DNA of 64,000 nucleotides from Candidatus Aminicenantes bacterium (GTDB taxonomy: Bacteria > Acidobacteriota > Aminicenantia > Aminicenantales > Saccharicenantaceae). The DNA lies in the NCBI GenBank assembly GCA_013178315.1, contig JABLWX010000003.1:2855-66854 (forward strand). The letters are read 5' to 3'. The position numbers and the translations under genes were made by a program. Shown here piece by piece: positions 6,825 through 40,070 of this stretch (its first letter is position 1; each line of letters begins with the position of its first letter). Under the pieces are notes generated by a model. The model was given only the letters and a program-made list of their open reading frames with translations. It searched no databases and had not been told where the DNA came from.

Positions 6825-8111
6825 ATGAAAGAAAAGATCGAAAAAAAAGACCTTCTCCGATACATCCTGATCAGACTGCTCATCATCACCTCCATTCTGA
6901 TTGCCACCTTTATCATCCAGTATTCAACCGGGACAGATTTTCCGCCGGTCTTCATCATGGCCATAATCGTTTTCTACGGCCTGTCGCTGCTCTATTTCCT
7001 GCTATACCTGTGGGGCAAGTTCCTGGTGTTACAGGCTTACCTGCAGCTGATCTCGGACCTGTTGCTGATCACCTGGCTGGTCTATATCTCGGGCGGCATG
7101 TTCACGGCCACCTATTTCCTTTATATATTTGCCATCATTGCCGCCAGCCTGGTGATTTCGGAGAAGGCCACCTACCTGGCTGCCGGGTTGTCAGCGGTTC
7201 TGTTTGGCTTCCTGGTGGATGCCACCTATTTTGGCCTGATTCCCTATTTCCATCCTGACCAGGCGGTCAAGCAGGAATTCGGGTCGGTGCTGTTCAACCT
7301 GATCCTGGCCTGGGCCGTGTTTTTTGCGGTGGCCTTTTTCATGAGCTATCTAAGCCGCAGCTTGAAGAAGGCTCGGCACGAGCTGGAGCAGGCCCAGAAA
7401 GAACTTATCCTGAGGGAGCGCCTGGCTGAAGCGGGGCGGGTGTCGGCTACCCTGGCCCATGAAATCAGGAATCCCCTGGCCGCCATTTCCAGCGCTGTCC
7501 AGGTCTTAAAGTCCGAATATACCGGGAACGGGGACGTGGGTCGGATGATGGAAATAATCGTCCGCGAATCCAACAGGGTTTCCCAGCTGCTGGAGCAGTT
7601 CCTGGATTTCGCCACCCCGTCCAAGAAAATGTTCAGCGAAATTGACCTGGGGATGCTCCTGAACGAGACGCTGGAGATGCTGCGTTCGAGCGGAGAGCTG
7701 GACGGGAATAAGATCAGGGTGGACGGCAATTATCTCTTCCGGAGGATTGCTTACTACGGTAACCCCAATCACTTCAAGCAGATTTACTGGAACCTGATTA
7801 AAAACGCCATCAAGGCCATGCCGGAAGGCGGAAAGCTGAGTTTGAACTTCTACAACTCGCGGCGGGATGGCTTAAAAATAGTCATTACCGATAATGGATT
7901 CGGTATGAGTGAACAGGATAAAGAGAACCTGTTTGTTCCCTTTTACTCGGGCTTCGGCGAAGGGCGGGGACTGGGGCTGGCTACCGTCAAGAAGCTGGTC
8001 GAAGATTATGACGGCAAGATACAGGTGAATTCGGAAGTTGGCCGGGGCACCGAGGTTATCATCACCCTTCCCCTCGTGAATGAAAAAAAGAAAGGGGCAG
8101 AAGTAAGGTAA
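6825..8111 (+). CDS. pilS: Membrane sensor histidine kinase, PilS-like
   Basis: About 6 N-terminal TM helices, H-box LAHEIRNPL, N box NLIKNAIKA, G boxes DNGFGM / GRGLGL. Positioned between pilC and pilR. Confidence 0.7.
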   Translation: MKEKIEKKDLLRYILIRLLIITSILIATFIIQYSTGTDFPPVFIMAIIVFYGLSLLYFLLYLWGKFLVLQAYLQLISDLLLITWLVYISGGMFTATYFLYIFAIIAASLVISEKATYLAAGLSAVLFGFLVDATYFGLIPYFHPDQAVKQEFGSVLFNLILAWAVFFAVAFFMSYLSRSLKKARHELEQAQKELILRERLAEAGRVSATLAHEIRNPLAAISSAVQVLKSEYTGNGDVGRMMEIIVRESNRVSQLLEQFLDFATPSKKMFSEIDLGMLLNETLEMLRSSGELDGNKIRVDGNYLFRRIAYYGNPNHFKQIYWNLIKNAIKAMPEGGKLSLNFYNSRRDGLKIVITDNGFGMSEQDKENLFVPFYSGFGEGRGLGLATVKKLVEDYDGKIQVNSEVGRGTEVIITLPLVNEKKKGAEVR

Positions 8112-19229: not shown

Positions 19230-20576
19230 ATGAAACAAAATAAAATGAGCGGCGAAAAAAAATTTCTGAGAATTATCGGGAATAGAGTGACGGTGGTTGT
19301 GGGAGCAGTGATTATTTGGGGCTTTTTGTTTATGAATTCAGCCGGAAGGGCTCTGGCTCTGGCCGAAGCGGAAAGGCAGGAGGGGAAAGCCGCCCCACGC
19401 ATCGTGGCGATTAAAGCGGGCAGGATTCTGACCATGGCCGGCCCGGTCCTGGATAACGGCCAGGTCTTAATCGAGAACGGGAAGATTAAAGCGGTTGGCA
19501 GGGATATTAAGATTCCGGAGGAGGCCGAGGTCATCGAAGAGCCAGAAGGCTGGGTGCTCCCTGGACTGATAGATGCTCATTCTTCGCTGGGGCTGGTCGA
19601 TGAAACCGGCCGCAGCGAGAATGAAGAGCTTTCCGACCCGAACGTGGCCCAGCTGAGTGTTATTGATGGTTTCAATCCATTTGATAAGAGGATAGCCCAG
19701 GCCCGGGCCGCGGGAATCACGGCCGCCCTGGTAACGCCTGGCCGCAGGTCGGTCATAGGCGGTCAGATGGCTGCAGTCAGGCTTCGCGGCCAGACTGCCG
19801 ACCAGATGGTCCTGCTGTCGCCGGCCGGGATGAAGTTTTCAATCGGCGAAGGACCGAAGCAGGCTTTCGGGGAAAAGGGCCGGCTGCCTTCAACCAGGAT
19901 GGGGAACGTCTATGTCATCCGCCAGGCACTGCTGGAAGCCCGGGAATATGCCGGGCAGTGGTCAGCTTATGAAAAGAAGCTGGCCGGGGCTAAAAAAGAC
20001 AGAAAAGACGCGGCTGAGGTTCAAGCACCAAAACGGGATTTAAGACTGGAAGCCCTGGCCCGGGTGGTTAAGGGCGAATTAACGGCTTTTATAGAATGTT
20101 ACCGGTTGGATGATATCGGTGCGGCTTTAAGGCTGGTTGACGAGTTCGGCTTGAAGGCGGTCCTGGTGGGCTGCGCCGAGGGCTATCTTCTGGCCGGAGA
20201 AATTGCCAGGAGGAAAATACCGGTAATAGTCGGTCCTTTCGGCATCGGGCCCAAAAGGACGGAAACGGAGCGGGTTGAAATCAGCAACGCGGCCAGGCTG
20301 CACGGGGCAGGAGTTAAAGTTGTGCTGCAAAGCGAAGTTCAGTACGGGCTGGGAACCCTTGAAGAACTCCCGCTGTTAGCAGCCCTGGCGGTCAGGGGAG
20401 GACTGCCCGAGGAAGAAGCCTTAAAAGCCATTACCATCAATGCCGCGGAGGTGATGGGAGTGACGGGAAGAATCGGCAGCCTGGAGCCGGGGAAAGAGGC
20501 CGACCTGGTAATATTCAGCGGCCATCCTTTTGATTACCGCAGCCGGGTTAAAAGGGTTTTTATAGCGGGTGAATAA
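19230..20576 (+). CDS. Secreted amidohydrolase-family protein (paralogue 2)
   Basis: Same architecture (GLIDAHSSLG, GSLEPGKEADLVIF) and collinear with paralogue 1. I chose the ATG at 19230 over the TTG at 19200. Its C-terminus is about 10 aa shorter than paralogue 1, and the stop codon overlaps the left inverted repeat. Confidence 0.7.
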   Translation: MKQNKMSGEKKFLRIIGNRVTVVVGAVIIWGFLFMNSAGRALALAEAERQEGKAAPRIVAIKAGRILTMAGPVLDNGQVLIENGKIKAVGRDIKIPEEAEVIEEPEGWVLPGLIDAHSSLGLVDETGRSENEELSDPNVAQLSVIDGFNPFDKRIAQARAAGITAALVTPGRRSVIGGQMAAVRLRGQTADQMVLLSPAGMKFSIGEGPKQAFGEKGRLPSTRMGNVYVIRQALLEAREYAGQWSAYEKKLAGAKKDRKDAAEVQAPKRDLRLEALARVVKGELTAFIECYRLDDIGAALRLVDEFGLKAVLVGCAEGYLLAGEIARRKIPVIVGPFGIGPKRTETERVEISNAARLHGAGVKVVLQSEVQYGLGTLEELPLLAALAVRGGLPEEEALKAITINAAEVMGVTGRIGSLEPGKEADLVIFSGHPFDYRSRVKRVFIAGE

Positions 20577-21472: not shown

Positions 21473-22672
21473 ATGTCTGGATACTATTTTGAAGTCCGGG
21501 AGGGACGGGATTTCCTGGCCGAAGAGATGCCCGTGGAAATCGTGGAGCGCAAGGGCAAGGGTCATCCTGATTCGCTGTGCGACGGGGCGGCCGAGGAACT
21601 TTCGGTGGCTCTGTCCGAGATTTATCGGCGGGAGACTGGAAGGATTCTGCATCATAACGTGGATAAAGCGGTCCTGGTCGGCGGAAGTTCCAGCGCCGGG
21701 TTCGGCGGCGGAAAGGTGAGTGAGCCGGCTCTTCTTTACATCGTCGGCCGGGCCACCTGCGAATACAAAGGCAAGAAAATCATCGACAACGAGTCCATAA
21801 AATATCTTGAAACCAGAATTGCCGGCTGGATGATGGGGCAGGTGCCCCATCTAAAAAAAGAACACTTCCAGGTCAAGCTCTTAATCAGGCAGGGCAGTGA
21901 GGATTTGACGGCGATTTTCGCCGACGACGAAAGGGCTCCCCGGGCTAATGATACTTCGCTGGCCGTGGGCTATGCCCCGCTCAGCCAGCTGGAAACCCTG
22001 GTTCTGGAAACCGAGAAATTCCTGAACAGCCCGGATGGCAAGCGCCGATTCCCGGCCCTGGGCGCGGACATAAAGGTTATGGGTGTCCGCAAGGGCGAAT
22101 CCATAAACCTGACCGTGGCCGCAGCCTTCGTGGCTTCCGAGGTTAAAGACAGGCCGGCTTACGACCGGATGAAAAAGGAAATGGCCGATTTCCTGCGGGG
22201 AGAATTTGTACGGCGTTATACTTCCCGGCCGGTTGAGGTAACCATAAATAATGCCGATACTTCTGAATCGCAGTATCTAACTGTAACCGGCACCAGCGCT
22301 GAATCGGGCGACGACGGCCAGGTAGGCCGCGGCAACCGGGCCAACGGCCTGATCACGCCCTACCGGCCAATGAGCCTGGAAGCGGTGGCCGGGAAGAACC
22401 CGGTCAGCCACGTCGGGAAGATATACAGCATAATGAGCCAGCTGATTGCCGACAGGATAGTGCAGGCCTTGCCAGAGACCAAACAGGTTTATGTCTATAT
22501 GGTCAGCCAGATCAATGAACCGATCGATGAGCCCCAGGCCCTCAACGTTGAGCTGTGGGGCCTGGATGCCAGCAAGGTCAGGGCAGAGGTTCGGAAAATA
22601 GCCGACGAAGTGCTGGGCAACTGGCGGGAGATCCGTGACGGCTTCATGAGCCGCCGCTGGCCAATCTATTAA
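21473..22672 (+). CDS. mat: Archaeal-type S-adenosylmethionine synthetase (methionine adenosyltransferase)
   Basis: [97 protein letters not shown] are collinear with the Methanocaldococcus-type MAT family. This is not the bacterial MetK fold family. Confidence 0.9.
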
Positions 22673-23023
22673 AGTGGTCGGCGAAGAATAAATTTGGAAC
22701 CCCTTTTTTCCTTGAGCTGTCAGACTTAAGTAACAAAAATTTTCGGCTGGCCGGCAGTCCATATTTTCGGTTTTCCACTGAGGCAGCAATATCGGTATCC
22801 ATTTTCCAGGTTTTTGTCATCAATTCTTTTCTTTATTGTGACATGAGTATTCAGGAAGATGTCCAATGCAAGGCAGCATATTAACAATAAAAATTCGCTC
22901 TTCCGTTTGATTTTTTTGCCTGTCTTTTAATTCCTTTGATTGGACCGGGAGCGGGATGGGCAGACTGGTTGGGAAGGTATTGAGTTCTTTGAACAAGTTC
23001 GGGAAGTATGTTTAATTCCCCTT

Positions 23024-25348
23024 TTATAAAAGGGGTTTAAGAGCCTCGGCCCCGGCCACACCGCTGTTAACGAGATAGCACTTCACCTGGTCCAGCAGGC
23101 GGCTGAAGAACATCCGTTGCATGGCCAGCTTGTCTTCATTCACCACCAGGAGATGCGGGTTAAAGAAGGGCTGGGCCTTGGCCGAGAGCGACTTGACCGC
23201 GCCCGAAGGCTCCCCGCTCTCCAGTATTCTCAGGGCTTCTTCCTTGCTGAGCTCCACCACCGCCGGCGACACCTGGTCGTTACGCAGGATTACCAGGCTC
23301 TTCAGGTTGGTTCTCCTGGTATAGCCCTGCGCTCCGGCCAGCCAGTTGGGGTCGAGCATGGCCTGGGACTCGCCGGAAGCCCGGAAGCAGTAGGGCGCGC
23401 CCTTGTCGAGCCGGCAGTCATCCTGCATGGGGCAGGTGCGGTCGGTGCAGTCCTCGCGCCTGGTGACCACGTTCTCGCACTTGCTGTGGTCAAAGAGCCT
23501 GGCCAGTTTATCATGGAGTTCAACGGTATTGGTGGGGATGTAAAATTTTCTCTCGACGGCGTCGGCCACCGCCCGGCTGCCCGAAAAGCGGACGAACACA
23601 ATCTCGTTGGTCTGGGCCTGGACTTTGGGCTGCTTGAGCAGCTCAAAAAACAGCTCGGTCTTCTTGGTTCCTGGCTGTCCGACCAGTATAAGGCCGTTTC
23701 CGTCCAGCCCCACGGCCATGCCCCGGACGGCATTTATGCCCAGGTGCTCCGAGGAATCAAGGACCATGCCCAGGGCCAGTTTCCGCAGTGGTCCGTAATT
23801 GTCTGTGTTAACCAGGATTCCGGTCCTGGTTTCCGGGTGGTAATAGGCCCGCGGTTCTCTTCCCGGCACCTGGTCCACCGCGTAAATCACGGCGTGCGGT
23901 TCCAGCCCGGCTTCTATCTGGCCCGGGAACCAGTTTTCCACCCAGAAGTCATAGAGATGGCCGACATTGGTCCTGAGCTGAACGATGGTGCCGTTGATGT
24001 TGGCATTCCACTCGTAGTAATTCTCGTAACCCAGGTGGCTTTCCATCTCGGCCACCAGGGCATCTCTCAGTTTGCCCTCGGCCACCACCTCCACCGGCAC
24101 CGATTTTTTTACCTTGGTCACGTAATTTTGCAGGTAAATCTTCTTAACTTTCTTGGCCGTCTTCAGCTGGCTCATGGCCTCGGCTATCCGGTCCATTCCT
24201 TTTTCCAGGTTTTCCATGGAGGTAGCGTAGGAAATGCGGATGTAATTGTCGGCCCCGAAAGCATCTCCTGGAACGATGGCCACCCTGGCTTCCCGCAGCA
24301 GGTAATAGGCCAGGCCGTAGGAATTCCTGATCTGGATACCGCCGGCTTCTTTCCCATAATAGGAGCTGACGTTGGGAAACAGGTAAAAGGCGCCCTGGGG
24401 CTTGAAGCAGGAAATTCCAGGAATCTGCTGCAGCCGCATCAGCACGTAGTTTCTTCTTCTCTGGAACTCGGCGGCCATGCGGTTAACTTCGTACTGGGGC
24501 CCGGCCAGGGCTTCGACACTGGCCTTCTGCGATATGGAGCAGGCGTTGGAGGTGGTGTGGCTCTGGATCTTGCTCATGGCGCTGATGATCTCGGCCGGTC
24601 CGGCCGCGTAACCTATTCTCCAGCCGGTCATGGAATAGGTTTTGGAAACCCCGTTGACTATGATGGTCTTCTTTTTCAGGTCTTCGCCCAGGGTGGCAAA
24701 ACTCACGAACTGGAACCCATCGTAGACCAGGCGACTGTAAATCTCGTCGGCGATGATGTAGATATCTTCCTTGCGGATGACCTCGGCCAGAGCCAGGAGC
24801 TGTTCCCTGGTATAGGCTGCCCCAGTCGGATTGCTGGGATTGTTCAGCACCAGGGCCCGCGTCGATGGGGATATGGCGGCCTTCAGCTGCTCTGGCGTCA
24901 GCAGAAAGCCGTCTTCCTCACGCGTTTCCACAATAACCGGCTTGCCCTTGGCCAGGTTCACGCACTCCGGGTAGGTCACCCAGTAAGGAGCCGGAATTAT
25001 AACTTCATCGCCCTCGTTGACGATGGCCTGGACCAGGTGGTAAAGGGAGCTCTTGGCCCCGGTGGAGATAAGAACTTCGCCGGGCCTGTAGTCCAGCCCG
25101 TAATCTTCCTTGAGCCTCTTGCAGACAGCCTTTCTCAGCTCAGGAATGCCGTCGTTTTCGGTGTACTTGGTGAAATTCTGCTCGATGGCTTTAACCGCCG
25201 CCGCCTTGACATTTTCCGGCGTCGGGAAATCGGGTTCGCCCACGCTCAGGTCGATAACATCGATGCCCTCGGCCTTCATGGACTTGGCCTTGGCCGAAAT
25301 CTTTAAGGTGGGAGAAGCTCCTATTTTGGTTACTCTTTCTGAAACCAT
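23024..25348 (-). CDS. Fusion protein: class I PLP aspartate aminotransferase (aa 1-~395) plus HPr-kinase-like P-loop domain (aa ~400-774)
   Basis: The N-terminal half has the typical AspC motifs (LSVGEPDFPTP, NNPSNPTG, SKTYSMTGWRIGY). The C-terminal half has RGMAVGLDGNGLILVGQPGTKKTELFFELL, collinear with the HprK C-domain HGVLV..G.GVLITG.SG.GKSE.ALEL. Confidence 0.8.
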   Translation of the reverse strand: MVSERVTKIGASPTLKISAKAKSMKAEGIDVIDLSVGEPDFPTPENVKAAAVKAIEQNFTKYTENDGIPELRKAVCKRLKEDYGLDYRPGEVLISTGAKSSLYHLVQAIVNEGDEVIIPAPYWVTYPECVNLAKGKPVIVETREEDGFLLTPEQLKAAISPSTRALVLNNPSNPTGAAYTREQLLALAEVIRKEDIYIIADEIYSRLVYDGFQFVSFATLGEDLKKKTIIVNGVSKTYSMTGWRIGYAAGPAEIISAMSKIQSHTTSNACSISQKASVEALAGPQYEVNRMAAEFQRRRNYVLMRLQQIPGISCFKPQGAFYLFPNVSSYYGKEAGGIQIRNSYGLAYYLLREARVAIVPGDAFGADNYIRISYATSMENLEKGMDRIAEAMSQLKTAKKVKKIYLQNYVTKVKKSVPVEVVAEGKLRDALVAEMESHLGYENYYEWNANINGTIVQLRTNVGHLYDFWVENWFPGQIEAGLEPHAVIYAVDQVPGREPRAYYHPETRTGILVNTDNYGPLRKLALGMVLDSSEHLGINAVRGMAVGLDGNGLILVGQPGTKKTELFFELLKQPKVQAQTNEIVFVRFSGSRAVADAVERKFYIPTNTVELHDKLARLFDHSKCENVVTRREDCTDRTCPMQDDCRLDKGAPYCFRASGESQAMLDPNWLAGAQGYTRRTNLKSLVILRNDQVSPAVVELSKEEALRILESGEPSGAVKSLSAKAQPFFNPHLLVVNEDKLAMQRMFFSRLLDQVKCYLVNSGVAGAEALKPLL

Positions 25349-25369
25349 GGCTTGCCTGCTTTTCCGGGA

Positions 25370-26806
25370 TTATTTCTTCTCGGGTTTCTTTTCCTGGGGC
25401 TCAGGCTTGGCCTCGGTGGCTGAACCCAGCTTGTCCCTCAGGAACTTGGCCAGGTCGGCCCCGGTCAGGGCCTTGAGCACCTCCGGCATCTGGGCCAGGA
25501 TCTGGGTTACCTGGCCGGTAATTTGGTTGGTGCCAAGCCCCTTGTCGCCGCCGATGACCACGATCTTGTCCACCTTGGCCAGGGGCTCGGCCACGGCCCG
25601 GGCCAGCTCGGGCAGCACCTTGATGAAGCTTTCCAGCAGGGCCGCCTCGTTGTATCTTTCCCAGGCCTGGGCTTTCTTCAGCATGGCCTCGGCCTCGGCC
25701 AGGCCGCGCAGCTTGATCTCGTCGGCCTTGACCATGGCTTCGAGCTTCATGGCTTCGGCCTTGCCCTTGCCCTCGGCCATCAGCCGGATTTCTTCAGCTT
25801 CGGCTTCGGCCTGGATCTGGTACTTGCGGGCGTCGGCCGGTTTCAGGACGTTGGCTTCCAGCTCTTTTTCCTTGCGCTTGATTTCCAGCTCTTCTATCTT
25901 GATGGCTTCTTCTTTTTCTATCTGCTTGACCTTGGCCTCTTCTTTCTTTATTTCCTGGCTGACCCGGGTGCGTTCCAGTTCATAGGAAAAATCGGCCTGG
26001 GCTTTCTTCTGGTTGACGAAGGTCTGGGACTCAGCCTTCTTGGCTTCGTTTTCCCACTGGGCCTTGGCTATCTGGGCTTCAGCCTGCAGCCTGGCCACCT
26101 CGGCTTCTTTTCGGGCCTGAGACGACTTGATGACAGCTTCTTTCTCGGTTTCGGCCTGGGCAATGGCCGCATCCCGCTTGGCCGCGGCAATTACCGGCTT
26201 GCTAAGGGCATCGATATAACCCTGGGTGTCGCTGATGTCCTTGAGTGAGAAACTCAGCAGGACCAGGCCCATGTTGGCGAAATCTTCCTTGGCGGCCTGG
26301 GCCACCCGCCTGGAAAATTCCTGGCGACCGCGGTAGATTTCCTCGACAGTCATGGTGCCGATTATTTCCCTGACCTTGCCTTCCAGCACGGTCATGGCCA
26401 CATCACGAATTCCTTCCTTTCCGCTTCCCAGGAACTGCTCGGCGGCCAAGCGTATGGCCAGGTCGGTAGAATCCACCTTGACCTGAGCTGCGGCTTCAGC
26501 CAGGATGGGAATGCCGCCATGGGTCAGGACTTCCGGCGTTTTGATATAAATGGTTATGACTTCGAGGGGCAGGGTATAGACCTTTTCAATGAACGGCCAG
26601 ACGAAGGTACCGCCGCCCAGTTTATATCTATAGCCAACTTTCTTTTTCGTCCCGTCGGGCAGGGTGACGGTTCTCTTGCGACCGCCGGCGATGATCAGGG
26701 CCTCGTTAGGTCCAACCTTCCGGTATTGAGTGGCCAGCACCACTCCCACTATGGCCAGAAAAACAACTATGGCGCCAATGATTATTAGCCAGGTGGTTAA
26801 AGGCAT
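25370..26806 (-). CDS. Flotillin / SPFH (band 7) family protein
   Basis: N-terminal TM, SPFH domain, and long Ala/Glu/Lys-rich coiled-coil flotillin repeats (EAEAEE.., AEAEAM..). It ends 21 bp upstream of the fusion gene on the same strand. Confidence 0.85.
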
Positions 26807-27000
26807 GATAACCTCCCTCCAACTATGATGATTTTATGATAAATAAGGGGACTGGCCTGAGACAGGGCATAACCCGACCGGGGAAAAAAGAAACACCTTC
26901 ACTTCTGGTCATGGTCTTCTGACTTACCCTTTTCAGGCTATTTTGAAAGGTCTTTTTTTTCAAGGAAAGATATTAATTCTTCCCATAATTAAAGTCAAGC

Positions 27001-28298
27001 CAAATTTTCATTCCGGTCAAGACATGGTATCCAGTCTAATGGGTCTGTTTGGAAGCGGCGCGGTGGTAGTCCGGCCATAGGGATTGGGGTGGAGGAAGCG
27101 GGGAGATTTATCAGGTTGGTACTTGAAAAAGCGGGGCTTCCTCCCTTAAAAGTTTTGTTAAAACTTTTAATGGAAAGGAGGAAACCCACCCACCAATGAC
27201 AAGTAATATATACCCCACTTACCAGGAGCTTGGCAAGAGTGCGCCGGTACTGGTCAGGAAGTTCGTGATCAGGGCCTATGAGGAGACGGGGAATATCTCC
27301 GAGGTGGCCAGGATGTTTGGGACCACCAGGAAGACGGTCCGGAAGGTGCTGAGGAGGTGGAAGGAGGGCGGGGAGGAAGGCCTTAAGGATCTGTCCCGGA
27401 GGCCAAAACGCTCTCCGCGGAGGACCTCAGCCGCGGTGGAGGCGATGATCGTGGCCGAGAGGAAGAAGACCGGCTACGGCCGGGACCGGATAGCCCGGAT
27501 ACTTCAAGAGAAGGGAGTAGAGGTAACGCCCTCTACCGTCCGTTATGTTCTGAGGCGATACCGACTGAGTATCAAGTACAAACGTTCCCGCTACAGGCGG
27601 AGGAACCGCTTCTATGATTTTGACTCACTCTATCCCTTACAACACTTCCAGGTTGACCTTAAGGAGGTCTATGACTCTACCACCCTTTCTGAGGAAACTC
27701 TGCGCTGGGCCAGGAAGCTGAACATCCCTCCCTATCAGTGGACAGCCATAGATGTGAAAACCCGGTTGAGGTTTATCTCTTACTCCTATGAGAAGACCTT
27801 CACCAATGGGCTGATGTTCATGCTGCTTATAATCTACTTTGTAAGAAGCTTTGCTCTGGAGCACAAGATAACCCTTCAGACCGACAACGGCGAGGAGTTT
27901 GGGGGTAAATCGGTAGAGAAGTTGGAGTATCTTAACAACAGGGTCTTTGCCCCACTGCGGGCCGAGCTGCTTCATATACCCAAGGGGAAGAAGGAGTACC
28001 AGGCCTTTGTGGAACGCTCCCACCAGACCGATGACAACGAGTTCTACATCCCGCAGATAGAGCGCTGTGTGGACCTCAAGGAGTTTTACCTGAGAGCCAT
28101 GAGATGGCAGTTTATGTATAATACGGTGCGGCATCACTCAACGCTGGGTATGACCCCCTTCAGGAAGTTGAGGATGGAACGAAAACTCCCCAGACTGGTG
28201 GCCTCGTTCCCGGTTATCCAGCTGGAAAAGCTCACCGACCTCTACCCAAAACTCTTCCCCCAACCTGGATACCATGTCTTAACCAACGACCTAATTTG
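27001..28298 (+). mobile_element. IS481-family insertion sequence
   Basis: Imperfect terminal inverted repeats: core GGTCAAGACATGGTATCCAG (27015-27034) versus CTGGATACCATGTCTTAACC (28265-28284), 19/20, with a further outer CAAATT/AATTTG match (27001-27006 / 28293-28298). They enclose a DDE transposase gene. I could not recognise a target-site duplication. Confidence 0.6.
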
Positions 28299-28527
28299 TT
28301 TTGGTGCTGAGGAAAAATTCGGGTCCCGAGGCACCAGTCGCAACTTTGCCGCTCGCTTTCAGGACAGAGTCATTTTGGTGGCAATGGTGAACCTGGAATT
28401 TTTTACTTCCGGATACTATCCGCATTTATCAGCCAGTATTTTTCCTGGAGTCAACTCTTTGGCCGGCATGGATTTTCCGCAAAAAACAGAATTTTCTGTT
28501 GCCGGGCCCGAGAATAAAATAAAATAA
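27196..28527 (+). CDS. IS481-family DDE transposase (the ORF reads through the right inverted repeat)
   Basis: N-terminal HTH (NISEVARMFGTTRKTVRKVLRRW), second HTH, and an rve-type core (FQVDLKE.., TDNGEEF, ERSHQTDDNEFY). The last 81 codons (28285-28527) lie outside the inferred IS end. Confidence 0.8.
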   Translation: MTSNIYPTYQELGKSAPVLVRKFVIRAYEETGNISEVARMFGTTRKTVRKVLRRWKEGGEEGLKDLSRRPKRSPRRTSAAVEAMIVAERKKTGYGRDRIARILQEKGVEVTPSTVRYVLRRYRLSIKYKRSRYRRRNRFYDFDSLYPLQHFQVDLKEVYDSTTLSEETLRWARKLNIPPYQWTAIDVKTRLRFISYSYEKTFTNGLMFMLLIIYFVRSFALEHKITLQTDNGEEFGGKSVEKLEYLNNRVFAPLRAELLHIPKGKKEYQAFVERSHQTDDNEFYIPQIERCVDLKEFYLRAMRWQFMYNTVRHHSTLGMTPFRKLRMERKLPRLVASFPVIQLEKLTDLYPKLFPQPGYHVLTNDLICFGAEEKFGSRGTSRNFAARFQDRVILVAMVNLEFFTSGYYPHLSASIFPGVNSLAGMDFPQKTEFSVAGPENKIK

Positions 28528-37748: not shown

Positions 37749-38855
37749 TTAAGAACTTATTTCTCTGAGATGGTTAAAAATATCTATTTTTTGAGATTCA
37801 AGATTCAGGACATAAAACTCGATTCTTTCTCCTTCTCTTCTCAGGAGAAAATCGAGACTTGAATAGGATAGGTCTTCACTCCAGTAATAGATCGCACTGA
37901 TGTTTCCGTTTAGGTCAAGGGCCATGATTTCCAGGCAGGGGTGAGTTCGCAAAATGTAAATATTATTTTCGAAACTTCTTATGGCGTTTATTACAATGAT
38001 GCGAGCCTGTGCTCTCTGGTTGGTGAGTAGAACCTCTCCTTTTCTATTGGCTGCAGCCTGACGATTCATGATCGGATGATCAATATGAAATTCTGTGAGA
38101 AGTTCGCCCCTTTTTGAATATCTGCGTATGATCGGATAATGCTTAAAGGCCACCCAGAGGTCCCCGGCATCACTGACAGAGATAACAATAGAGTTATCCA
38201 GATTAAAGTTCTTGTTGTCTGAGCTATAATTAAGGCAGTCTCCAAAAGTTGCCAGAAGTTCTCCTTTGTCTGTTAACAAATCTACTAGCCCAGTTGACGT
38301 CTGGTGAAAGGCAGGGGCACCAAAGAATAATCCGTCATTTGTGCGTTCCATTGATGTGTAGAACCTAAATAACCTGAAGCTATTAAGATGGTTACCGTTT
38401 TCATCGAACGATTGAATACGCATGTTTCCAAGTTCCAGCACCTGAAGCAGTCCATCGCCGGAGAAGGCCTTTACGGGCTGCATCAGCTCGCCAGGCCCCT
38501 GACCCGGCTTGCCAACTTTTCGGGTGATGTTTCCATGACGATCCATAATATAGATAAAATTTAGAATTGAATCGGGCAATATCAAATGTCCACTTGTACT
38601 CCAAGAAAGAGTTGTTACGCCCTTAAATAATATTTCTGGTGACTTGGAAGCTGACTCCAGGGGAATGGTTCTGTTCAGATATAGAGGCTTACATTTATCA
38701 GGGTATTTTTTTTCCATCCAGACCTTCAACTCTTTAAGTATTTTTTTCCTTTCATTTACGAAGTGTTCTTGGCCTTGGAAGGGGGTCAGACTAAGACCTG
38801 CAAGGAGAAGACAAATAAATAATGGTGGAACGAGATGTGGTCTGATTTTCTTCAT
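37749..38855 (-). CDS. Secreted six-bladed beta-propeller-like protein (NHL/TolB-like)
   Basis: Signal peptide and a repeated roughly 45-aa beta-sheet-like periodicity with D/G-rich turns. The family call is by eye only. The gene is markedly AT-rich. Confidence 0.45.
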   Translation of the reverse strand: MKKIRPHLVPPLFICLLLAGLSLTPFQGQEHFVNERKKILKELKVWMEKKYPDKCKPLYLNRTIPLESASKSPEILFKGVTTLSWSTSGHLILPDSILNFIYIMDRHGNITRKVGKPGQGPGELMQPVKAFSGDGLLQVLELGNMRIQSFDENGNHLNSFRLFRFYTSMERTNDGLFFGAPAFHQTSTGLVDLLTDKGELLATFGDCLNYSSDNKNFNLDNSIVISVSDAGDLWVAFKHYPIIRRYSKRGELLTEFHIDHPIMNRQAAANRKGEVLLTNQRAQARIIVINAIRSFENNIYILRTHPCLEIMALDLNGNISAIYYWSEDLSYSSLDFLLRREGERIEFYVLNLESQKIDIFNHLREISS

Positions 38856-38857
38856 GT

Positions 38858-39877
38858 TTATCTTTCCCGCTCAAGAACTGAATTAATGAAGGCACGCAAC
38901 TCGCTTATTTGCTGCATCTCGGGTCCCCACGATCTTAAAATAACTCCCCGGCTGTCGAGCATTACAGTCAATTCATTAAGTTCACTCTCTGAATATCTAG
39001 TTGCCAGCATATCCCATCGAGCTCTTAATTCAGGGGGAGCAAAGAGCACCGGAAATGGGATGTTGGCTTGTGTAACAAGGTTCCTTAAATCCTGGCCATT
39101 CATCCTATCCTTAAGGACCATAAAACAGCTTATATGATCGGGGTACTTATCCAATATTTCTTTAAATAAAGCCAGTATTTGCCCTCCCAGACATGAATCA
39201 CAAAAATTTATGAAAAGAGCGCCAAGGAAATATCTTTTTGTTGAGCCAGCAATGCATTCTATATTCTTGAATTCCAAATCTCCTTTCAAACTATGGCCGG
39301 GAGGCAATAATTCGTGAACCTCGAACTTAATATTTTTTATGTAATGATTGATAAATTTCTTGAGATGGGTTTCATATCTGTTGCCAATGAGACCCCTATA
39401 AAGGAGATTCCCCTTGTTGGAAAAGATATAAAAAGAACTTTGATACTGGGGAGCCCCAAATTTTCTTATAATTTTATCATAGGGGCCTGCTAAGAAGTAC
39501 AGGGCTGAAGCGAATTTCTGGGCGAGCACGGTTTCGATCTTATCTGCGGATACGACGACAGCGACTTTCAGGTCATTAAGATCATTTAAGACCTTTTCCA
39601 AGATACCCATATTGCTTTCCACATCGGGATCTAAAAATAATATAAGAATGGGCCTGTCCCTAAAGTCTCTTTTCAATGAATACGTCCGACCAGAGATGTC
39701 GCTCACTCGAAGGCCGGGCAGCTTTGTGGGGAGTATCTTGTCCTTTGAGGTTCCAGTAGACTCAGGTTTACAGGTAAATAGGGATAAAGAGAGAATGGTT
39801 ATAAATAAAAACAGCCACCCTCTTGAGCCCATATTTGGGAACCCTTTTAATTTTCTCTTAGCACTTTTTTTTTTCAT
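38858..39877 (-). CDS. Lipoprotein with tandem thioredoxin-fold (TlpA/redoxin-like) domains
   Basis: Start at MKKKSAK.. with lipobox LSLFTC. The first redoxin-like domain has no CxxC (ILILFLDPDVESN). The second retains FINFCDSCLGG (CxxC). Confidence 0.45.
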   Translation of the reverse strand: MKKKSAKRKLKGFPNMGSRGWLFLFITILSLSLFTCKPESTGTSKDKILPTKLPGLRVSDISGRTYSLKRDFRDRPILILFLDPDVESNMGILEKVLNDLNDLKVAVVVSADKIETVLAQKFASALYFLAGPYDKIIRKFGAPQYQSSFYIFSNKGNLLYRGLIGNRYETHLKKFINHYIKNIKFEVHELLPPGHSLKGDLEFKNIECIAGSTKRYFLGALFINFCDSCLGGQILALFKEILDKYPDHISCFMVLKDRMNGQDLRNLVTQANIPFPVLFAPPELRARWDMLATRYSESELNELTVMLDSRGVILRSWGPEMQQISELRAFINSVLERER

Positions 39878-40070
39878 GTCAAGCCCATGTGCCCGGCTCA
39901 AGGCAAAGGATAGGTTTCCGGCTAACGGAATGGGCTTATAAGTTTGTCCGGCCAGCCTCATTACTATACTATCCTGAAACTGGAAAGATGACATTCATCT
40001 GGCCAGGGTTGGCCTGGCCTTAAAGGTTGAAAAACCGGCGGTTCTGTTATATAAAATCATCTCAGGAGGA

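Follow-up and report, generated by a model that had tools for sequence, protein, structure and literature searches.

An aspartate aminotransferase fused to a compact PEPCK-superfamily module, with flotillin as neighbour, in Candidatus Aminicenantes

The fusion gene and its aminotransferase half

The window analysed here, a stretch of 64,000 nt from a Candidatus Aminicenantes bacterium, contains a minus-strand ORF of 774 aa with an ATG start (23024..25348), which comprises a class Ib aspartate aminotransferase (AspAT) domain (aa 1-395, 24164..25348), a Lys-rich inter-domain linker (KTAKKVKKI, about aa 396-404, 24137..24163) and a compact PEPCK-superfamily module, here called mini-PEPCK (aa 405-774, 23027..24136), all read from the minus strand. 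A flotillin (SPFH/Band 7) gene (25370..26806, minus; Pfam Band_7 E=1.7e-30, plus Flot) lies 21 nt upstream on the same strand. The ORF list bears out the 774-aa frame at 23024-25348 (minus) given in the first-pass annotation, and the Lys-rich linker that it described is present as KTAKKVKK at about aa 396-404. This linker is the least conserved segment of the protein (57% mean pairwise identity), and residues 400-408 have pLDDT<50 in the full-length model.

Some databases call the halves as separate entries, e.g. at locus L002, and many homologue matches look truncated, which could suggest that separate genes were merged through an assembly chimera or an overlooked frameshift, the scenario that the first-pass annotation itself had set against the fusion. 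However, the split in L002 comes from a 1-nt frameshift in a long-read assembly; the shift lies within the aminotransferase, whose C-terminus continues there in frame into the mini-domain. Both halves lie in one frame, as a single continuous ORF, in 80/80 GTDB loci, with a length of 776-816 codons wherever the contig permits, and 120 full-length fusion proteins of 774-812 aa were collected. An independent contig of 5,935 nt spans positions 22900-26900 with 0 differences from the window, the fusion shows 0 indels across four sequencing runs, and the junction, where coverage had seemed worth checking, is crossed by contigs of independent runs with an indel in none. An artefact is thus rejected, its probability being negligible.

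The gene is conserved in >500 Aminicenantes-type species, and the >1,000 fusion protein clusters, from >500 species-level genomes, are annotated merely as "aminotransferase". Given a mean identity of 65.5% among the fusions and many invariant residues, purifying selection on the fusion gene is evident. Among papers on Aminicenantes or Saccharicenans that concern AspAT, PEPCK or oxaloacetate, and among those on PEPCK-like or HprK fusions, none describing the AspAT–mini-PEPCK architecture was found.

Pfam PF00155 (Aminotran_1_2) matches aa 30-388 over profile positions 2-361 of 361 (E=2e-82), and the Schiff-base lysine K236 in SKxxxMTGWR (PLP-binding; nt 24641-24643, minus), the cofactor ligands N173, D201 and Y204, and R371, which binds the alpha-carboxylate, are each invariant in 121 fusions, in agreement with the first-pass description of residues 1-~395 as a complete class I PLP aminotransferase. 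Like the class Ib AspATs AatB 6F35 (Sinorhizobium; the closest PDB match, E=9e-115), 1BKG (Thermus) and 5WMH (Arabidopsis Asp/prephenate), with which it aligns end to end (E=9e-115 to 1e-95), the fusion keeps every PLP/substrate residue checked; unlike it, these known enzymes are standalone dimers of about 385-410 aa, and none of those compared has a C-terminal PEPCK-like module. Judged from these residues, the N-terminal half is an intact class Ib AspAT. Because its scores fall under the curated equivalog cutoffs (NCBIfam aspartate transaminase PRK06107, 463 bits vs 617; the archaeal AspAT model, 427 bits vs 550), its exact amino-donor specificity is put forward as a prediction; the predicted activity is Asp + 2-oxoglutarate <-> oxaloacetate + Glu.

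The C-terminal half as a compact PEPCK-superfamily module

The module starts at a conserved LxNxxTxVK motif, the same as at the N-terminus of its standalone relatives. Single-sequence searches of the C-terminal half in Pfam and PDB gave nothing useful; in the window protein it has no Pfam match and no NCBIfam match above cutoff (PEPCK model NF006821, E=0.024, 13 bits vs a cutoff of 369), and the mini-PEPCK module is covered by no Pfam or NCBIfam family and so far unannotated. The AlphaFold2 model of this half (pLDDT 91.9, pTM 0.90) gave, in Foldseek, a top 35 of PDB matches that were all ATP-PEPCK (E=1e-17, TMq 0.73, about 410 aligned columns), and superposes over its whole length, including the part before the P-loop, on both domains of ATP-PEPCK. 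With hhalign, a diverse family alignment (A2) matched E. coli PckA 87-469 over 339 columns (Prob 96.6%, E=6.7e-10), against a probability of only 16% for a narrow alignment (A1). As modelled, the C-terminal half is a compact two-lobed module of the PEPCK superfamily. The full-length fusion model (pTM 0.51) leaves the linker disordered, renders the monomeric AspAT half weakly, and shows no confident signal for inter-domain geometry or for a channel between the active sites.

The module has the same overall two-lobed fold as ATP-PEPCK (PckA, EC 4.1.1.49; E. coli 1AQ2, Thermus 2PC9), and its motifs are collinear with those of PckA (RxxTE..F..NMF, YGG..KK, H-strand, Walker A, kinase-2, E..Y..KT, LENV, LTADAFGVLPPVS and YLVNTG). 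It is however shorter, with 374 aa vs about 540 aa, and differs at both ends: the segment before PckA residue ~87 is missing, so that the oxaloacetate/PEP-binding R65 has no counterpart in the family alignment, which begins there, and the adenine-binding C-terminal subdomain (PckA ~449-540) is missing as well, the alignment stopping at PckA 469 and the fusion protein terminating 13 residues past YLVNSG, the equivalent of PckA YLVNTG. Unlike PckA, the module is fused to an aminotransferase, carries a four-Cys insertion and remains below the Pfam/NCBIfam PEPCK thresholds.

Residue equivalences were taken from the family-profile alignment to E. coli PckA, and conservation was counted in 121 fusions. 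The string quoted in the first-pass annotation, RGMAVGLDGNGLILVGQPGTKKTELFFELL, corresponds to aa 542-571 of the 774-aa ORF, and coordinate arithmetic places its Walker A/kinase-1a loop GQPGTKKT at aa 557-564 (23657..23680, minus), as had been stated. Compared with the consensus G-x-x-G-x-G-K-[ST], the Lys and Thr are kept (K563 = PckA K254, 121/121; T564 = T255, 117/121) and Gly253 is replaced by Lys at position 562, where the fusions have K67 R35 N14 G5. Calling this Walker A degenerate was right for the altered preceding Gly, a family-variable position, and overstated for the loop as a whole, in which the Lys and Thr are retained. Arg542 (23723..23725, minus) occupies the position of the PEPCK Mn ligand His232 and of the HprK catalytic His, being Arg in 121/121 fusions and His in most standalone relatives. 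Asn581-Glu582 (23603..23608, minus) align with the kinase-2 pair Asp268-Asp269, which is DD in canonical relatives, the first position being N in 113/121 and the second D89 E32. PckA Lys212 corresponds to Arg522 (Arg in 121/121), Lys288 to Pro605 (Pro in 118/121), the Mn ligand K213 to K523 in the window protein (Ser in 99/121), and the oxaloacetate/PEP-binding R333 to Gln662 (H99 Q15 Y6 R1 across the fusions). The Mn2+ ligands K213/H232/D269 with the Mg-associated D268 are not kept as a set in the 121 fusions.

Other positions do not vary: the P-loop Lys, E599 (PckA E282 equivalent), E625-N626 (E311-N312) and Tyr518 are invariant, and GxPGTxKT, E599-R600-K601, D666-P667-x-W669 and N730-P731-H732 are strictly conserved. 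The core substitutions are identical in fusions with and without an adjacent PEPCK, and more canonical mini-domain residues in genomes without an adjacent PEPCK were tested for and not found. The four-Cys insertion, C634-x4-C639-x5-C645-x8-C654 (23387..23449, minus; each Cys 121/121), is a putative metal site that is absent from PEPCK and deleted in some standalone subclades, and its region is modelled less confidently (pLDDT 78-83).

HprK and PEPCK have a common P-loop core, and the first-pass annotation had read the C-terminal half as HprK-like. HprK entries indeed lead its PDB sequence-profile matches (E~0.003), weak Pfam Hpr_kinase_C matches occur in 16/58 and 20/84 relatives beside weak NCBIfam HprK-related ones, and a strand-Gly-x-Gly-strand-Walker A-helix segment is shared with the HprK C-terminal domain (PF07475; 1KO7, 1JB1, 1KNX). 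However, this likeness is limited to about 55-66 residues around the P-loop, against about 340-410 positions for PEPCK, and ahead of the P-loop the module is PEPCK-like, not HprK-like. On the window protein, the HprK profile TIGR00679 reached E=0.09 and 12 bits vs a cutoff of 240, and PF07475 gave no match; the catalytic His before the P-loop is replaced by Arg542 and the Asp-Asp after it by Asn581-Glu582. Profile and structure searches thus gave different leads, HprK at the top of the former and ATP-PEPCK throughout the top 35 of the latter, so that HprK-likeness stands at the superfamily level and falls for an HprK-type kinase domain, as the whole length superposes on ATP-PEPCK. Among the neighbours scanned (17.5-36.3 kb of the window), no HPr/PTS, RiPP precursor, maturation or lasso-peptide kinase genes were found, and the proposed peptide/RiPP kinase role finds no support in a setting of flotillin, SAM synthetase, an IS element and amidohydrolases. 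A kinase that phosphorylates a protein, a RiPP substrate or the aminotransferase itself is largely refuted by the fold and profile results and is very improbable.

Gene neighbourhood and relatives of the fusion

Flotillin is found directly upstream, at 5-60 nt, in every Aminicenantes locus with sufficient flank; L093 and L094, two distant relatives in which the remaining synteny is lost, have it upstream as well, at a distance of 18 nt. No terminator-like site was detected between the flotillin and fusion genes on the minus strand (counts in the promoter/terminator scans were not above those in shuffled sequence), and contigs from RNA runs extend over both genes; flotillin is a probable co-transcribed partner of the fusion. 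The other neighbours in the window are SAM synthetase, an IS transposase, amidohydrolases, a GH28-like protein, an OMP, Era, CorC and an HD protein.

In 16/80 GTDB loci, the next gene downstream of the fusion is a true PEPCK, with full-length NCBIfam PEPCK coverage (E=7e-85) and all core catalytic residues present. The cognate PEPCK in genomes with this operon, such as CP070825.1 and Ca. Aminicenans sakinawicola, has 610 aa. When the association was tested in reverse, 3/3 PEPCKs from long contigs, one closed genome included, had the fusion 10-108 nt upstream, and in a distant fused relative PEPCK_ATP is divergently adjacent to the flotillin->fusion pair. The arrangement flotillin -> fusion -> PEPCK is found across a major Aminicenantes clade, while about 50 GTDB loci with >=2 kb of downstream flank, those of the window's genus (Saccharicenans) included, contain no adjacent PEPCK. 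General Aminicenantes synteny around the loci (RNase PH, epimerase, GT2, gmhA) weakens part of the inference from context. Gene context ties the fusion to the oxaloacetate/PEP node, and the frequent adjacency of a true PEPCK suggests that AspAT and PEPCK, which make and use oxaloacetate, are physically coupled. The "metabolite-sensing or two-step enzyme" also proposed in the first-pass annotation comes nearer to this context, with its true PEPCK, than the kinase reading does.

Uncharacterised standalone mini-PEPCK proteins of about 350-420 aa (e.g. P0120, P0121 and P0127) are members of this family, with E-values as low as 1e-109 vs the family profile, with the same domain limits and motifs and, in some, the four-Cys insert. 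They differ from the fusion in keeping the canonical set of Y, K, IHG, APTGTGK[ST]T, HSDDW and R at the R333 position, in lacking an aminotransferase, and in having neither flotillin nor PEPCK adjacent in the loci examined; the canonical ones look catalytically competent by their residues. An apparent NfeD/SPFH link of one standalone locus (L084) was rejected, the neighbour being an SppA-type S49 peptidase whose NfeD1b_N match comes from the shared protease fold. The context at a Zixibacteria locus (L095) was left out, as a stretch of N cuts the 5' end of the gene there. His, G-K-[ST] and the equivalent of R333 are still present in deep members of the fused clade, so that the ancestor may have been active.

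An independent fusion, of the P0130 type (899 aa, archaeal-looking contigs, one ORF in 3 assemblies), joins a mini-domain directly to a bona fide PEPCK (416 bits vs a cutoff of 369). As in the AspAT fusion, its mini-domain has Arg at the H232 and K212 positions and N-D at kinase-2, and is covalently joined to another oxaloacetate-handling enzyme; unlike there, it stands N-terminal to its partner, which is PEPCK rather than AspAT, and has a P-loop that is degenerate throughout (GSSENDIAT). A crude NJ tree places it outside the AspAT-fused clade.

Possible coupling of aspartate, oxaloacetate and PEP

The best explanation, plausible but tentative, is that the mini-PEPCK module serves as an adaptor or ligand sensor coupling AspAT to true PEPCK. 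AspAT would make or consume the oxaloacetate that PEPCK consumes or makes, and the remodelled, paralogue-derived module, most likely without standard ATP/Mn-dependent carboxykinase chemistry, would offer a cationic pocket that could accommodate oxaloacetate, PEP, phosphate or pyrophosphate. By linking the aminotransferase to true PEPCK, it would let aspartate <-> oxaloacetate <-> PEP run as a coupled unit, possibly on a flotillin scaffold, in which labile oxaloacetate would be protected. Since no PEPCK gene adjoins the fusion in Saccharicenans, the partner there would be encoded away from the fusion locus. An elaborated form, in which a pseudoenzyme adaptor docks AspAT onto PEPCK with both on a flotillin scaffold, as a membrane-raft aspartate -> oxaloacetate -> PEP metabolon with the four cysteines as a redox/metal switch, is unlikely.

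The strictly conserved motifs of the module would be compatible, too, with a site that is still catalytic but has changed its chemistry, and a true bifunctional enzyme, with Arg/Lys side chains standing in for the Mn2+ site, is possible though doubtful. Such an enzyme might convert AspAT-derived oxaloacetate to PEP, simply decarboxylate it, or work in reverse (PEP + CO2 -> oxaloacetate -> aspartate), and, as the adenine pocket is missing, the phosphoryl donor may be a non-adenine one such as PPi, PPi/Pi being used by HprK/P of the same superfamily. The whole PEPCK fold is kept under strong purifying selection together with the P-loop Lys/Thr, E599, E625-N626 and Tyr518, the competent-looking standalone relatives and the more canonical deep fused members are in line with activity, and no separate PEPCK is adjacent in the window's genus. 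On the other side, Arg replaces both His232 and Lys212 in every fusion, Asp268, Lys288 and R333 are nearly always replaced (R333 kept in 1/121), and the R65 loop and adenine subdomain are gone. Moreover, a second PEPCK activity would be redundant in the many genomes where an intact PEPCK lies right beside the fusion, and the P0130 mini-domain, which has lost its P-loop, is still kept fused to a real PEPCK. Flotillin could instead be the main partner, with the C-terminal half mainly recruiting or oligomerising the aminotransferase on flotillin membrane microdomains, e.g. near amino-acid transporters, and PEPCK ancestry being incidental. The constant upstream flotillin, its persistence in the two deep relatives and the RNA contigs over both genes speak for this; however, it leaves the recurrent PEPCK adjacency and the PEPCK fusion unexplained, the standalone relatives are not beside flotillin (the NfeD-like neighbour of L084 being only apparent), and the protein showed no membrane-binding feature, which makes it quite improbable.

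Half of each fusion annotated as "aminotransferase" is an unrecognised PEPCK-superfamily domain, in a lineage that is globally abundant, uncultured and anaerobic, and the standalone family, with catalytic residues intact and without the adenine pocket and R65, represents an uncharacterised branch of carboxykinase-like enzymes. Through its constant pairing with the fusion, flotillin offers a way to test what is organised by bacterial flotillins, and if the metabolon reading were true, it would be the first bacterial flotillin-organised central-metabolic channel. If the coupling of AspAT and PEPCK is true, it would give aspartate a dedicated way into gluconeogenesis, or let PEP be turned into aspartate with conservation of ATP, represent a natural case in which a degenerated paralogue of an enzyme serves to channel oxaloacetate, and change the metabolic reconstructions of Aminicenantes.

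One gene for an aspartate aminotransferase and a C-terminal module

The gene at 23024-25348 on the minus strand of the window (774 codons, ATG start) joins two halves in one polypeptide. Aminotran_1_2 of Pfam matches residues 30-388 (E=2e-82), and the N-terminal half aligns end to end with the AatB structure 6f35 (E=9e-115), as well as with Thermus aspartate aminotransferase and the plant aspartate/prephenate aminotransferase. K236, N173, D201, Y204 and R371 are invariant among 121 fusions, and by sequence this half is a class Ib aspartate aminotransferase; since its scores fall short of the equivalog cutoffs in NCBIfam, aspartate specificity is probable rather than proven.

The first-pass annotation had allowed for a missed frameshift or an assembly join, but an artefactual joining of two genes could be effectively excluded, since the aminotransferase and the C-terminal module form a single same-frame ORF in 80/80 best loci of a scan of GTDB species representatives, an independent contig spans 22900-26900 with 0 differences, and no sequencing run checked contained an indel in the fusion region. 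Fusion ORFs in these loci have 776-816 codons where the contig permits, and relatives are encoded in at least 501 genomes of that scan. The sole locus with halves called as separate genes, L002, has a 1-nt frameshift within the aminotransferase, and its C-terminal module continues in frame from the aminotransferase C-terminus. Searching with the full protein gave 1,172 clusters at E<=1e-150; in the best 120 of these every protein has 774-812 aa and is publicly labelled 'PLP-dependent aminotransferase' only. Metatranscriptome contigs are present across both halves and the upstream gene. A perfect 8-bp hairpin, CCCCTTTT-AT-AAAAGGGG (23022-23039, minus strand), overlaps the fusion stop codon; it lacks a T-run and is absent from the terminator scan output.

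Fold and remodelled active site of the module

Residues 401-774 have no Pfam match and give faint NCBIfam signals only (PEPCK E=0.024, HprK E=0.09). For a structure model built on a 58-sequence alignment (pLDDT 91.9, pTM 0.90), the 35 top Foldseek PDB matches were all ATP-dependent PEPCKs (E=1e-17, TMq 0.73, ~410 aligned columns), followed by GTP-PEPCKs, so that all 374 residues, beyond the P-loop core, are predicted to adopt the PEPCK architecture. An exhaustive profile search of this mini-PEPCK family yielded 502 cluster representatives; among the 84 long ones, Pfam Hpr_kinase_C matched 20 and PEPCK_ATP 7, and a diverse family profile matched residues 87-469 of E. coli PckA (96.6% probability, E=6.7e-10). 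The P-loop peptide quoted in the first-pass annotation does occur in the fusion ORF, with GQPGTKKT at nt 23657-23680, and the HprK-like domain proposed around it retains a faint signal; this similarity is limited to ~60 residues at the P-loop, however, while the whole C-terminal half is PEPCK-like, and an HprK-type protein or peptide kinase can be effectively excluded. Two parts of ATP-PEPCK are missing from the module, the adenine-binding subdomain and the segment with R65. Modelling of the full-length monomer (pTM 0.51) gave no usable inter-domain geometry.

When PckA residues were mapped onto the window protein and counted over 121 full-length fusions, K254 and T255 corresponded to K563 (K in 121/121) and T564 (T in 117/121), and the preceding G253 to K562 (K67, R35, N14, G5). 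H232 and K212 are replaced by R542 and R522, both Arg in 121/121, and K213 aligns with K523, a position occupied by Ser in 99/121. D268 has become N581 (N in 113/121), D269 E582 (D89, E32) and R333 Q662 (H99, Q15, Y6, R1), while K288 and Y207 align with P605 and N517, near the invariant R600-K601 and Y518, respectively. Four invariant cysteines (C634, C639, C645 and C654) lie within an insertion. Mean pairwise identity is 65.5% for the module versus 74.8% for the aminotransferase half, and the module is, judging from these alignments, under purifying selection.

Most standalone relatives (350-420 aa) differ in having the canonical Y, K, IHG, APTGTGK[ST]T and HSDDW, with Arg at the R333 position. 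The deepest aminotransferase-fused members in a crude NJ tree also keep the His, G-K/R-[ST] and the R333-position Arg, indicating that the remodelling was progressive. Elsewhere in the family, in P0186 (754 aa), the Walker A loop of a canonical ~550-aa member is interrupted by an intein (APTGTGKS | intein | T; PF14890, E=1.5e-16). A standalone subclade (P0159, P0192, P0210, P0217, P0242, P0245 and P0253) has entirely lost the P-loop, His and Asp-Asp, keeps the four-Cys insertion and is likely, from its sequences, to consist of pseudoenzymes. A conserved 62-aa ORF directly precedes a canonical standalone gene in two loci (L084, 504-692; L085, 2640-2828); the ORF directly 3' encodes a full S49 (SppA-like) peptidase in L084, and in L085 it is truncated by the contig end and carries no annotation. 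In L003 (905-2611), the most distant standalone member, P0114 (314 aa, GGSGAGKT, without the Cys insert), is encoded directly 3' of a histidine-phosphatase (His_Phos_1) gene. For the homologue in CP070796.1, a closed Zixibacteria genome, the stored sequence has an N-run in place of the gene's 5' part (locus L095, about 6840-7000), and a nucleoside-diphosphate kinase gene follows.

Flotillin and PEPCK as recurrent neighbours

The fusion gene is recurrently associated with flotillin and a catalytically intact PEPCK. The gene immediately upstream, in the same orientation, encodes flotillin, with a gap of 21 nt in the window; this arrangement recurs in all Aminicenantes loci with enough flank and, with 18-nt gaps, in two deep-branching fused relatives (L093 and L094) sharing no other synteny. 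Downstream, in 16/80 GTDB loci, the product of a same-strand gene (609-632 aa) is homologous to PEPCK over its full length (NCBIfam NF006821, E=7e-85) and has Y207, K212, K213, H232, S/T250, G253, K254, T/S255, D268, D269, K288 and R333 all in place. Such PEPCKs are widespread in Aminicenantes (1,343 clusters), and the reverse test placed the fusion 10-108 nt upstream of PEPCK, with flotillin before it, in 3/3 cases on long contigs, one being a closed 4.43-Mb genome. In L093 a PEPCK_ATP gene divergently adjoins flotillin and the fusion. An independent, direct joining is seen in P0130 (899 aa, identical single ORF in three assemblies, archaeal-looking neighbours), which combines the mini-domain with a bona fide PEPCK (416 bits versus a cutoff of 369); in this mini-domain Arg occupies both the H232 and the K212 position, kinase-2 reads N-D and the P-loop is fully degenerate. 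The PEPCK association is more telling than the flotillin context.

No PEPCK gene occurs within the 64-kb window. The window matches Candidatus Saccharicenans at 95% identity. In this genus the fusion is followed instead by a convergent archaeal-type S-adenosylmethionine synthetase gene (21473-22672, plus strand; PF01941, E=2.8e-137), which here lies in a bacterial genome and which only Saccharicenans-like loci carry at this site. Upstream of the synthetase gene is a tandem pair of amidohydrolase-family genes (464 and 458 aa; 17555-20576, plus strand). Some 200 nt ahead of the start of the flotillin gene is an IS element (27015-28284), whose 20-nt inverted repeats (27015-27034 and 28265-28284, 95% complementary) enclose a transposase that contains HTH_28/HTH_29/HTH_32 and rve_3 domains; its ORF as listed (27196-28527, plus strand) extends ~240 nt beyond the right repeat. 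Two low-GC islands (0.42-0.46 versus ~0.55 elsewhere) may be horizontally acquired, one at 10001-16000 with YfhO-like, DUF362, UbiA prenyltransferase and methyltransferase genes, the other at 38001-40000 with a beta-propeller (DUF5128-like) protein and an unassigned 378-aa ORF.

Possible role of the module

The gene encodes an intact aspartate aminotransferase in covalent linkage with a compact module of the PEPCK superfamily, whose active-site region is conserved but remodelled. Neither the fold nor either parent family is new; the mini-PEPCK family is unannotated, without a Pfam or NCBIfam model, and our literature searches found no description of the architecture. The fusion of this family to the aminotransferase and the flotillin/PEPCK operon appear undescribed.

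Oxaloacetate is a product or substrate common to aspartate aminotransferase and PEPCK. Given this shared metabolite, the absence from the module of the adenine pocket, the Mn ligand and the two substrate arginines, and the frequent proximity of an intact PEPCK, the most economical reading, held tentatively and at slightly less than even confidence, is that the module could be a paralogue-derived adaptor or ligand sensor. A serious rival, albeit a less likely one, is that the module is still catalytic with altered metal-independent or PPi-type chemistry, especially in genera without an adjacent PEPCK such as Saccharicenans. Recruitment of the aminotransferase to flotillin, as the upstream gene might suggest, is a third and rather improbable role. 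As an adaptor or sensor, the remodelled module would couple aspartate aminotransferase with PEPCK at the oxaloacetate/PEP node.
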